From the NCBI GenBank assembly GCA_963666285.1, contig OY762711.1: a stretch of DNA of 64,000 bases; one strand, given 5' to 3'. A program made the position numbers and the translations under genes. Positions 36,331 to 56,419 of the stretch are shown piece after piece. The first letter of the stretch is position 1. Every line of letters starts with the position of its first letter. The notes under the pieces were generated by a model that ran no database searches, was not told the DNA's origin, and saw nothing but the letters and a program-made list of their open reading frames with translations. This stretch comes from Sedimentisphaerales bacterium. Lineage in GTDB: Bacteria > Planctomycetota > Phycisphaerae > Sedimentisphaerales > SM23-30.

Positions 36331-36403
36331 GGGGCCGTAGCTCAGTTGGGAGAGCGCTTGCATGGCATGCAAGAGGTCGTCGGTTCGATCCCGATCGGCT
36401 CCA
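36331..36403 (+). tRNA. tRNA-Ala(GGC)
   Basis: GGGGCCG/CGGCTCC acceptor stem with G3-U70, anticodon arm CTTGC-ATGGCAT-GCAAG, GGTTCGATCC T-loop, discriminator A; CCA not encoded. Confidence 0.98.
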
Positions 36404-36409
36404 TTAAAT

Positions 36410-36448
36410 AAAGCTTGTAATAGAATATATTACAAGCTTTTTGTTTTT
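36410..36448 (+). terminator. Terminator-like hairpin after tRNA-Ala
   Basis: AAAGCTTGTAAT-AGAATAT-ATTACAAGCTTT followed by TTGTTTTT. Confidence 0.7.
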
Positions 36449-36624
36449 ACATTATCAGAATATAATAGAAACTTGGTGATAAACAGCCTTGATCCAAATA
36501 ATACTTTTACCGGCATATCATGTTATATTTCCCGGCCAGAAGACTTCTGCAATACTACTTTGTAAAGTTCTTACATCATTTCATCCTTCCGATCTATACA
36601 CGGTTTTATAGTGCATTATGAATT

Positions 36625-37929
36625 TTACTTTCCAACTTTGACACATAACATTCGTTTTTGGTCTCTAATAAGCAGTTTGCCATCAGACAATGCTATCGGA
36701 GCCCAGTTCTGGTTGGAGCCGCCAAATCTTGTCATACGATTCTCATCATTTACCCCACCCTCTGCAAGTAAGGCAGCTGAGGCCAGTGGCTTAAAGCCGG
36801 AAGGGTCCGGCTCAATAAGATACAGTGTTTTAACACCATCAGTAGCCAGAATCAGTCCATCAGCTAAAATAATACTGCCCTTGGTGAATTCCGGCGAACG
36901 ATTAGTTTTCCACATTATTTTGCCATCCATATTCATACATACCATGCCATCATGACGGCTGTTAGTTCCATATTCGGCATAAAAATGGCACTTATATAAT
37001 AATGGAGTTTTAGTCTGGTCGCCAAATTCCTCAGTTCTAAACAGTTCTGTTGTGCCGTATTTGCCATCCGCTGTCTTTTCTACCTTGATCATCAGAGCCC
37101 CGAGTTCGTATCCGCCAACGATAAGTACCTTGTTGTCACCGGCATCAACGGCGCTTGAAACAGGGATATGACAATGCCAGTTATTAAACTGCCATATAAT
37201 GTCACCTGAAAGCGGATTAATACCTACAACCTTGCCCATGTCGCCACCTCTTCGGCCCGAAGCCGTTATCATAACAACATGGTCGTTACCGTCAATTTGA
37301 ACTATAGACGGGCTAACATATCCAGCATTACCTAATGATGGAGTTTTCCATTTCACATCACCTGTGAGCTTATCATAAGCAATTACACCGGCATCTGGAG
37401 CTTGAGAGGCAATAATAAGCAGATCACCATATATTAGCGGACTTTGGGTGATAGCCCAGGTTGGTATTCTCTGACCACCGAAATCTGTCCATATATTCTT
37501 ATTCCACACAGACTTGTGTGTATTTATATCAATACAATAAAGATCTCCGTAAGGACCACAGGAATACACATGCTTATCATCAACGATCGGTACACTTCGA
37601 GAGCCCGGAAAGCTTACTGAGCCGGGCGCCTTGTATTCAAGACTCCAAAGCTCTTTACCATTTGAAAGGCCAAGGCATCTCATATTGTCACCGACCTTGT
37701 CATCTCTATCGAGCAGATAAACTTTGCCATCTTTTATGACCGGACCACCATAACCAATGCCAACATTTACAGCCCAGAGCACTTCCGGACCACTTTCCGG
37801 CCAGGATCGCAAAATCCCTTGCTCCGGAGATATTGAATCCCTATTGGGACCAAGATATTGCGGCCAGTCTGCTAGACTAATACTTGCAAATAGCATTAGA
37901 GTTAATATAATCATGAATTTAAACTTCAT
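36625..37929 (-). CDS. Secreted PQQ-binding-like beta-propeller protein (planctomycete BamB-like family)
   Basis: Signal peptide ending SLA-DWPQYLGPNRD; WPESGPEVLW, repeated GxxxW blades, WAPIALSDGKLLIRD. Start 37929 behind AGGAG. Confidence 0.88.
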   Translation of the reverse strand: MKFKFMIILTLMLFASISLADWPQYLGPNRDSISPEQGILRSWPESGPEVLWAVNVGIGYGGPVIKDGKVYLLDRDDKVGDNMRCLGLSNGKELWSLEYKAPGSVSFPGSRSVPIVDDKHVYSCGPYGDLYCIDINTHKSVWNKNIWTDFGGQRIPTWAITQSPLIYGDLLIIASQAPDAGVIAYDKLTGDVKWKTPSLGNAGYVSPSIVQIDGNDHVVMITASGRRGGDMGKVVGINPLSGDIIWQFNNWHCHIPVSSAVDAGDNKVLIVGGYELGALMIKVEKTADGKYGTTELFRTEEFGDQTKTPLLYKCHFYAEYGTNSRHDGMVCMNMDGKIMWKTNRSPEFTKGSIILADGLILATDGVKTLYLIEPDPSGFKPLASAALLAEGGVNDENRMTRFGGSNQNWAPIALSDGKLLIRDQKRMLCVKVGK

Positions 37930-38005
37930 TTGACGCTCCTTCTTAATATCAATCTTAATACCATCAGCTATAACACTGAAAATCAAGCCATTGTTAAAAA
38001 TTTAA

Positions 38006-39196
38006 TTATAAAGCAGCTTTGAGCACATTGACAATATCGGCTTCCGTCATTGGCGGCAATGCCGGCAGATTGCCCTTGCCATCGTTAATTATACGCAAAG
38101 TTTCTTTAGCATAAGTTACAATCTTTTCATCGGTGATATCCAGCTCTGAAAAATGCGTAGGACAGCCAATTTGCCTTAAAAACTCTTCAAATTTATCTAT
38201 GCCGGCCATAGCACAATCAATATCATCCGGCCCTTTGGCTTCCAAACCAAAAATTCGTTCGGCAAACTGCACGAATTTAGCGGTATTGCTCTTCGCTGCA
38301 AAACGCATCCAGGAAGGATTGATAATTGCCAGGCCTGCGGCATGAGTAATATCATGAAATGCTGAAACCGTGTGTTCTATCATATGAACCGGAAAGCCGG
38401 CACTGCCAGACCCGGAGCCAATCCAGCCATTTAACGCTACTATTGAAGCCCATTGCACCTGGGACCGGGCTTCCAGGTCTTCACCGTTATCGATTGCTCT
38501 CACTCCATATTCCATTGCAGCTAAAATAGCCCCTTCTGCAAAACGGTCCTGAATCGGAGTATTGTCAGAACTATTAAGATATGATTCGGTAATATGTGTA
38601 ATAATATCACAAACTCCATAGGCGGTTTGATTTTTGGGCACACTCACTGTAAGTTCCGGGTCCACAACTGCTACTTTAGGATAAAGACAACCTGTACTCA
38701 TAAATGATTTTTCAGTTGTTTCCTCGTTAGAGATTACAGCGCCGCAATTCATTTCTGAACCAGTCGCGGCCAGGGTAGGAACGGTAATTATAGGTAACGC
38801 CGCAGTAGGCACATGCACTTTTTTCTGGCCATGGTATATCATGTCCCAGGGATCACCATCATATAATGCAGCGGCTGCTATAGCCTTTGAAGCATCCATT
38901 GTACTGCCTCCGCCAAGTGCAACAACCATGTCACATTTATTCTCACGTGCAATTGCCGCGCCGCGTCGAACAGATGAAATCTTAGGATTAGGTTCGACTC
39001 CATCACATTCAAATACTGCAATTCCGGCATTAGAAAGACTTTTAGCAAGTCGGTCGAATGTGCCATTACGCTTGACGCTGCCGCCACCGGTTACAACCAG
39101 GGCACTTTTGCCAAATTTGCTTGCCGCTTCACCAATTCGTTCCAAAGAACCGGCACCAAAAATTAAATGTGTTGGATTGTAATATTCAAAATTCAT
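38006..39196 (-). CDS. Iron-containing alcohol dehydrogenase (butanol dehydrogenase/YqhD-like)
   Basis: NFEYYNPTHLIFG, GVEPNP, GGGSTMDASK, TLAATGSE, HMIEH, HAAGLA. Confidence 0.92.
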   Translation of the reverse strand: MNFEYYNPTHLIFGAGSLERIGEAASKFGKSALVVTGGGSVKRNGTFDRLAKSLSNAGIAVFECDGVEPNPKISSVRRGAAIARENKCDMVVALGGGSTMDASKAIAAAALYDGDPWDMIYHGQKKVHVPTAALPIITVPTLAATGSEMNCGAVISNEETTEKSFMSTGCLYPKVAVVDPELTVSVPKNQTAYGVCDIITHITESYLNSSDNTPIQDRFAEGAILAAMEYGVRAIDNGEDLEARSQVQWASIVALNGWIGSGSGSAGFPVHMIEHTVSAFHDITHAAGLAIINPSWMRFAAKSNTAKFVQFAERIFGLEAKGPDDIDCAMAGIDKFEEFLRQIGCPTHFSELDITDEKIVTYAKETLRIINDGKGNLPALPPMTEADIVNVLKAAL

Positions 39197-39231
39197 AATT
39201 ATCATCTCCATTAAAATATATTTCATTATAA

Positions 39232-55800: not shown

Positions 55801-55820
55801 AGTGTTATCCTAAAAAAAGA

Positions 55821-56141
55821 TTATTGAAGCAATGCAGCATGAGCTTGTGCCTGCATTTTAATAACTGACTCAATACAATCCATAAATTTCAATAAGCATG
55901 GTACTTTTAATGAATAGTAAACCTGTTTGCCTCTCTTTTCATCCTCAACAACACCGGCCTGCTTCAAAATTGAAAGATGTTTGGAAACTGTAGAGAAATC
56001 AGCCTGTATAACCTCTGCAAACTCACAAACACATTTCTCACCTTTTGAAAGCTGCTCTGTCATCCACAAGCGGGTGGGATGAGCTAAAGCCTTTAATACC
56101 TTTGCCTTAGCTTCATATAATTTTTTATCATTTTCAGTCAT
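55821..56141 (-). CDS. ArsR/SmtB family metalloregulator
   Basis: LKALAHPTRL, EKCVCE, STVSKHLSILKQAG, C-terminal PC...C. Confidence 0.93.
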   Translation of the reverse strand: MTENDKKLYEAKAKVLKALAHPTRLWMTEQLSKGEKCVCEFAEVIQADFSTVSKHLSILKQAGVVEDEKRGKQVYYSLKVPCLLKFMDCIESVIKMQAQAHAALLQ

Positions 56142-56155
56142 TTCTATTCACCTTT

Positions 56156-56203
56156 GGTCATTTGAACATATGACAATATAACCAACAATACTAATACTGT
56201 CAA
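56156..56203 (-). promoter_or_regulatory. sigma70 promoter with overlapping ArsR operator
   Basis: Minus strand TTGACA (56203-56198)-17 bp-TATATT (56180-56175); imperfect palindrome GTCATTTG-AA-CATATGAC just downstream of the -10. Confidence 0.75.
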
Positions 56204-56290
56204 TTTTTATTTTAAGTTGCTTTAAGTTTTATATTCTATTTACAATAGCATACCCCCAATTACTCCCATCACCCCCATGCGGCTGCATTG

Positions 56291-56316
56291 ACATTCCCAG
56301 GCATGCATTATATTTG
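56291..56316 (+). repeat. 26-bp exact direct repeat (module right-end sequence), copy 2
   Basis: Identical to 41977-42002. Confidence 0.9.
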
Positions 56317-56384
56317 CAACAGCTAGCTAACTACTGCATAATAAGCAACTTATAAGACAATTACACCAAATTGAACATGCCAGA

Positions 56385-56419
56385 CAAGAGACAATCAATT
56401 CAATCCCGATAGGCTACAT
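56385..56419 (+). repeat. Degenerate tRNA-Ala 3' fragment (decayed att site)
   Basis: CAAGAGACAATCAATTCAATCCCGATAGGCTACAT versus tRNA CAAGAGGTCGTCGGTTCGATCCCGATCGGCTCCAT, 26/35 ungapped. Confidence 0.7.

Follow-up and report, generated by a model that had tools for sequence, protein, structure and literature searches.

We analyzed a 64-kb window of DNA (64,000 nt of contig OY762711.1, within the 6.15-Mb chromosome of a Sedimentisphaerales bacterium), in which an intact tRNA-Ala(GGC) gene is followed by 20 kb of metabolic genes and by displaced partial copies of the same tRNA; the features of interest sit at 36331-56419. This region contains two homologous right attachment sites (attR1 and attR2) that differ in age, and the tyrosine-integrase family to which they belong uses this tRNA in relatives. 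The locus is probably a fossil stack, formed when two elements inserted one after the other into tRNA-Ala(GGC), and it is predicted to be immobile. Because the integrase of the family exists in relatives but was not found here, the 20 kb of metabolic genes are likely to be immobile remnants.

A previous reading of the window from its letters (the sequence-only reading) had described the intact tRNA, a 39/40 copy of its 3' half starting within the anticodon (attR1 core), and a 26/35 copy farther downstream in which eight of the nine changes are to A (attR2 core). All three were confirmed, the tRNA by ARAGORN (Table 1), and chance was excluded as the source of the more decayed copy. On both strands of the chromosome, only the tRNA, the 50545 copy, the 56385 copy and tRNA-Ala(TGC) reach 25/35 to the tRNA half, and the best of 500 simulated 20-kb regions had 23 matches, short of the 26 seen here. 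A crossover inside the anticodon was not confirmed: in relatives, the 7-nt anticodon loop is whole in all ten attR sequences at tRNA-Ala. The shorter match at 50545 would reflect mutation of the loop there; five of the seven loop positions are kept at 56377.

Directly before 50545 lies a conserved arm of about 120 bp with two CTACACTT repeats. A profile of 23 arms from other sequences, containing no window sequence and no tRNA part, matches 50425-50537 at E 1e-13, and no other place in the genome falls under E 0.1. Relatives keep the loop ATGGCAT and a repeat-to-core spacing of 115-117 at tRNA-Ala (10/10), whereas attR1 has a changed loop and a spacing of 108; moreover, the inverted repeat pair found upstream in many relatives is replaced at attR1 by the TetR promoter region. 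The arm of attR2 is far more eroded. Alignment of the 130 bp before 56380 with the family consensus gives 69 identities and a score of 61, compared with 33.9+-5.3 for shuffled sequences (0/2000 as good), and its score against the 50425 arm is reached by 2/3000 shuffles and 5/20000 GC-matched genome windows. Relatives of the attR2 arm or of a 26-bp repeat within it were absent from viral contigs, 150 genomes gave two weak matches to the tRNA part, and a further search, run without a positive control, found them in 0/5 genomes.

Strand-biased deamination is a cause of skewed decay. The attR2 arm shows 48 changes from the family consensus, including 15 T>C and 10 G>A. In lagging-strand notation, other decayed tRNA copies in the genome show the same leaning, with 16 G>A vs 8 C>T and 8 C>A vs 2 G>T, although this tally is rough and may include variants of the elements themselves. 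Ordinary strand-biased decay on the lagging strand is the likely source of the many changes to A in the attR2 core.

The arm also defines an element family. It matched 11 of 400 other genomes, and a 19-letter pattern taken from it matched 19 metagenome contigs; the 3' half of tRNA-Ala(GGC), Val or Pro comes about 110 nt further on in 8/11 genome and 18/19 metagenome matches (several redundant). The arm-carrying records are labelled Planctomycetota. The CTACACTT repeat pair occurs in 32/401 genomes, while its reversed control occurs in none. Thirty of the 40 sites with this pair were surveyed for left ends, and 24 of the loci examined proved to be such ends, in which the tRNA is followed by about 72 nt, the CTACACTT pair and then the start of a gene. 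Among these ends, a full tyrosine integrase frame (358-379 aa) is present in five and is frameshifted close to its end in one; the contig stops within another, and the remaining 17 are broken or empty. Cargo beside right arms in relatives includes genes for sugar catabolism, metal transport and helicase/methylase defence. In addition, a membrane protein of about 100 aa with a C-terminal CxxC...CxxC stands directly before the right arm in several elements (L066, L069, L071 and L081) and is absent at attR1. Literature searches found no published description of this element family.

The cognate integrase, of about 375 aa, passes the PF00589 cut-off, and its members are 59-74% identical. Its motifs (L169:682-1812 and L160:18318-19457) read CGFGPKD, YRLRH and MRH in place of the usual TGxRxxE, HxLRH and LGH, with Gly at the place normally held by the first catalytic Arg. 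The CTnDOT subgroup is known to have a displaced catalytic Arg, and the same source describes arm-binding domains and arm sites (PMC8138268). Judged from their position, the CTACACTT repeats would be the arm sites of this integrase. The occurrence in one genome (G135) of 99.7% identical copies at tRNA-Pro(TGG) and tRNA-Ala(GGC) suggests that the enzyme is active. We also considered an integrase fragment (P0001) 2 kb from one arm as the cognate enzyme and rejected it because its family (79/301 genomes) uses tRNA-Met, Arg, Asp and Phe sites without arm repeats among the matches listed. This P0001-type family is widespread (L099-L128, about 400 aa) and points toward those four tRNAs, usually with a small conserved open reading frame (ORF) before it.

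These observations outline how the locus may have formed. The integrase would cross over in the 7-nt anticodon loop, rebuild the tRNA and displace the old 3' half to the far end of the insert. The first insertion would have been an ArsR element, since decayed (attR2), and a later TetR element would have entered in front of it (attR1), with subsequent deletions stripping the left arms and integrase genes. The block nearest the tRNA, which has an AraC regulator, likely arrived by a rearrangement that was not site-specific, because core and arm repeats are lacking there. Serial integration with the oldest remnant farthest from the tRNA, one of two origins offered by the sequence-only reading, is therefore supported for the ArsR and TetR modules, which have homologous attR arms and tRNA halves with the distal set far more decayed, but not for the AraC block, which has no att site.

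The integrase itself was sought in several ways. A search with PF00589 gave 20 matches across the genome, all of them outside the 64-kb window, six-frame searches of the window with local integrase profiles detected no remnant, and no relaxase or transposase family scored above cut-off among 28 scanned ORFs covering the region. The reported lack of integrase, relaxase and transposase ORFs is thus borne out, and no decayed integrase was found within the modules. Nor did the genome yield an enzyme fitting the arms: at E<=1e-20, neither this genome nor three congeners contain a match to the cognate integrase (vs 11/301 genomes with matches of at least 56%), and the closest local integrases are only 22-30% identical to it. 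Two serine recombinases in the genome were discarded as the cause, since both are distant from the locus. No integron integrase adjoins the modules, as the 64-kb window has no tyrosine recombinase. Integron arrays have attC hairpins between mostly single-gene cassettes; at this locus, tRNA halves form the junctions, and each module is an operon of several genes with a regulator of its own.

The other origin that had been offered, a live cassette platform that lacks an integrase and relies on one encoded elsewhere for loading and unloading in trans, appears highly improbable. In three relatives, an element does have the two arms on a single contig but no complete cognate integrase (G065, 3.0 kb; G341, 8.1 kb; G335, 13.2 kb, where a 198-aa integrase fragment lies close to the right arm), the TetR module is missing from one contig of a near-identical strain, and other integrase-less tRNA duplications exist in this genome. 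At this locus, however, the left-arm profile finds no match 3' of the tRNA or of 50584, neither the genome nor the three congeners yielded the cognate integrase, the overlap of attR1 is mutated and attR2 is eroded, and the break points seen in the strain lie off the cores (175 bp past one core, and at 41973).

Further tRNA duplications in the same genome also have no tyrosine integrase between the copies. At G000:C1:207384-235651 (L040, L041), four 3' copies lie downstream of tRNA-Met(CAT) at 210750 and an inverted copy lies upstream of it, with an identical hairpin after each copy and no tyrosine integrase detected; the cargo of this array includes AbiEii/AbiEi, an SNF2 helicase, an Eco57I-type methylase and an insertion sequence.

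Two other histories of the attachment sites have to be weighed, and the first turns on the 26-bp sequence shared exactly by 41977 and 56291, which has no third copy in the genome. It had been taken to mark a third, truncated junction. The repeat is real, but its status as a junction is not supported: tRNA core and arm repeats are absent, 965/2000 shuffles align with the attR consensus as well as the 41977 region does, and 1158/2000 match the attR2 arm flank as well as the left flank at 41977 does. The repeat carries the decayed form of the arm, with about 12 of its 26 positions departing from the family consensus, and it is likely to be a late copy of an already decayed attR2 arm. If there had instead been three serial insertions, which we consider unlikely, the AraC block would be a third element, and the 26-31 bp at 41.97 kb would be all that is left of its attR, deletions having taken its core as well as the TetR element's left arm and integrase. 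Such a history would fit the position of the sequence at the AraC/TetR boundary and its origin in an arm, as it lies inside the attR2 arm; a strain-variable segment starts 3 nt before it, and a single deletion would account for the lost core and the lost TetR integrase together. Against three insertions, independent decay would rarely yield a copy equal to the decayed form, the flanks are not significantly alike, no left arm lies 3' of the tRNA, and congener G003 holds the AraC operon as an ordinary-looking operon at core-gene divergence.

The second possibility is a single insertion, in which one attR site gave rise to both through duplication and rearrangement, and illegitimate recombination brought the modules together. 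Both window arms share AGGCAT and TAAC, which are absent in five aligned relatives, and their repeat-to-core spacing is 108/109 vs 115-117 in relatives; the 26-bp repeat also gives evidence of late copying at the locus. These shared arm changes could also come from a local sub-lineage or from parallel strand-biased mutation, the decay (39/40 vs 32/44) and indel pattern of the two sites are very unlike, and no duplication is present outside the att sites, so that we give a single insertion very little credence.

Two insertions followed by decay also have points against them. Simple stacking fails to explain the order of the modules, because the one nearest the tRNA, expected to be the newest and to have the clearest bounds, lacks an attR and the hairpin after the tRNA seems ancestral. 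Since nhmmer fails to detect the attR2 arm, the case for its homology depends on the core and on alignment at a position chosen beforehand. A helper integrase could sit in the unassembled part of the genome, which is 97% complete; assembled contigs lose rare forms such as excision products; and variation at 41973/50759 shows that the region is still changing.

This variation was found by comparing assemblies. Run X2 contains one 35-kb contig that spans 36366-56339 with zero differences, and two contigs cover the region in run X3 (same sample). The third run, X1, is a sediment metagenome from another study with pieces about 94-100% alike. One of its contigs joins 41973 to 50759 (depth 4.9; the shorter side is 72 nt, and the letters between are not known). 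Counting the joint alone and disregarding the lack of depth over the TetR module, this suggests a near-identical strain without the TetR module and attR1. The joint looks like an ordinary deletion or insertion rather than integrase excision because neither break point, 41973 or 175 bp past the attR1 core, is a tRNA core. Excised circles had been proposed as a check; no circle joints were seen in the assembled contigs of the three runs of this organism, which can miss rare events, and no deletion between 41977 and 56291 was found among X2/X3 contigs.

The 20-kb region, whose fixed synteny in relatives would have counted against the sequence-only reading, was not found as a fixed block in 40 relatives searched. 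In congener G003, the site has none of this cargo, and the hairpin after the tRNA matches that at 36404-36455. Gene order on either side of the locus is poorly shared with congeners, and we therefore dropped as evidence a hydrogenase operon that lies elsewhere in congeners. In congener G001, the same tRNA is occupied by a 55.5-kb prophage (L001:3041 to L003:18565) with a 420-aa integrase adjoining the tRNA and a 44-nt tRNA copy beginning at the first loop base. This integrase was rejected as a helper, as the window has no remnant of it and it shows only 30-33% identity to two integrases at tRNA-Val(TAC). The prophage carries its own tRNA-Tyr and tRNA-Met genes, RecT and a 3081-aa tail protein.

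With respect to the cargo, operons with AraC, TetR and ArsR regulators at their right ends are present as had been described (Table 1). "Three cassettes" overstates the case because two units are att-bounded and the third, the AraC block, lacks an attachment site. The enzyme operons are indeed transcribed toward the tRNA, which says little because the minus strand is the leading strand at this locus (the skew turns near 2.70 and 5.74 Mb) and neighbouring genes have the same direction. Gene orientation was dropped as evidence, with 896/1432 long frames of this replichore on the minus strand.

Homologous operons occur elsewhere. The AraC operon has a homologue at another place in G003, without the propeller gene, at 56-85% amino-acid identity, and the ArsR operon has one at another locus in G001 at 36-82% (congener yardsticks: iscS 77-79%, hydA 57-58%). 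Six TetR-module genes keep their order in G015 at 42-66% identity. A second ArsR-thioredoxin-DGC-DsbD operon at G000:C1:1444880-1447014 (L047) is 47-69% identical to the ArsR module of the window and lacks the permease. The enzymes of the TetR operon all score under equivalog cut-offs, and the operon may possibly encode an unusual lipid or sphingolipid-like pathway. In G028, which belongs to another family, an ArsR/ArsP/DsbD operon with acr3-, arsM- and arsC-like genes stands behind tRNA-Ala(GGC) in the same orientation (L027:4963-12959), with neither integrase nor arm seen; it was not counted as the same element because the arm is absent and the contig stops about 220 bp past ArsR. Outside the region, a 4483-aa ORF (window 20972-34423) has no Pfam match at 1e-5, and only its N-terminal 370-540 aa resemble congeners.

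Table 1. Features of the tRNA-Ala(GGC) locus in the window, and broken left ends of the element family in other genomes
Feature	Position	Strand	Basis and remarks
Intact tRNA-Ala(GGC)	36331..36403	+	ARAGORN; integration target, anticodon loop 36362-36368
Hairpin 3' of tRNA	36404..36455	+	Common to congener G003; differs from left arm of the element family (left-arm profile: no match)
AraC block enzymes: pyrroloquinoline quinone (PQQ)-type beta-propeller, Fe-dependent alcohol dehydrogenase (Fe-ADH), CMD-cupin, flavodoxin	36625..40802	-	Family matches
AraC-family regulator, divergent from AraC-block operon	40995..41927	+	Family match
8785-bp segment (TetR module, attR1, hairpin) skipped in X1 contig	41974..50758	.	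Single contig
26-bp exact copy of decayed attR2 arm interior (56291-56316)	41977..42002	+	tRNA core and arm repeats lacking
TetR module: epimerase/reductase, BioF/Kbl/SPT-like pyridoxal phosphate (PLP) enzyme, old yellow enzyme (OYE), ThiL-like kinase, lipid kinase, radical SAM, UbiA, TetR	42034..50322	-	Family matches
attR1 arm: two CTACACTT repeats and conserved spacer	50425..50544	+	Profile match; relatives' arms longer by about 8 nt; mutations in 7-nt overlap
attR1 core, displaced tRNA-Ala 3' half	50545..50584	+	39/40 identical, begins at second anticodon base
Hairpin with T-run, 3' of attR1	50590..50630	+	From sequence
ArsR module: FMN reductase, DsbD/CcdA, thioredoxins, DGC, ArsP-type permease, ArsR	50783..56141	-	Family matches
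attR2 arm, decayed, repeats CTCCCAT/CCCCCAT	56250..56375	+	Pairwise alignment; contains 26-bp repeat at 56291-56316
attR2 core, decayed tRNA-Ala 3' half	56376..56419	+	32/44; 26/35 over 56385-56419
Left ends broken at 62-87 nt	L130, L132, L134, L142, L145, L147, L150, L152		Other genomes

The broken left ends of the family provide a further lead. Eight of the 17 stop 62-87 nt past the integrase ATG with unrelated DNA beyond each, an interval chosen after seeing the data, and three more break directly after the CTACACTT pair. The cluster may mark a hotspot or a retained element of the left attachment site (attL). It is conceivable, though we regard it as doubtful, that the family sheds its integrase preferentially at codons 21-29, with the complete left arm and roughly the first 60 coding bases kept as a working attL, and that non-autonomous cargo elements thereby circulate among tRNA-Ala, Val and Pro through an integrase supplied in trans with a relocated catalytic Arg; the stack in the window would then be an end stage. 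If the clustering reflects a retained attL, it would offer a direct test of whether integrase-less islands in these sediment bacteria remain mobile.

Several known systems resemble this locus. Cis-mobilizable elements (CIMEs) and tandem accretion of the ICESt1/ICESt3 type involve integration, loss of integration and transfer genes, and arrival of a new element at the same site (PMC5704250). The locus is likewise a tandem of mostly decayed elements at one att site without integration or transfer genes. However, a CIME keeps both attL and attR, whereas the locus has only damaged attR sites, no left arm behind the tRNA and no adjacent intact element for mobilisation. The CIME definition fits relatives G065, G335 and G341 better, and the locus has decayed beyond the CIME stage. 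It differs from integrative and mobilizable elements in that no integrase of its own was found. The ssrA islands of Dehalococcoides are similar in that several tandem islands lie behind one RNA gene; 15 of them have no integration module, and the most distal ones are called possibly fixed (PMC3146451). Those islands involve the serine recombinase DsiB and a 20-bp repeat at the tmRNA, in contrast to the tyrosine integrase and tRNA anticodon loop here.

The locus thus appears as an ordinary result of island traffic at a tRNA, which illustrates how operons become fixed once their carriers decay, and the added value of this analysis lies in defining the element family: its arms, its integrase and the three tRNAs that it targets. 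A further counterpart is class A of Islander, which lists 3919 islands, 125 of them tandem, and 2083 anticodon-centred sites (PMC4383910). As in that class, an intact tRNA is accompanied by downstream 3' fragments on the same strand (14.2 and 20.0 kb away, inside the 2-200 kb spacing criterion of Islander), the element family has a tyrosine integrase and a predicted loop-centred crossover, and tandem arrays are known. The locus would fail the Islander integrase filter because it lacks an integrase inside, and integrase-filtered island finders overlook regions like this. Set beside these systems, it is likely a real decayed tandem array at a familiar kind of tRNA hotspot and not a working gene-cassette system.

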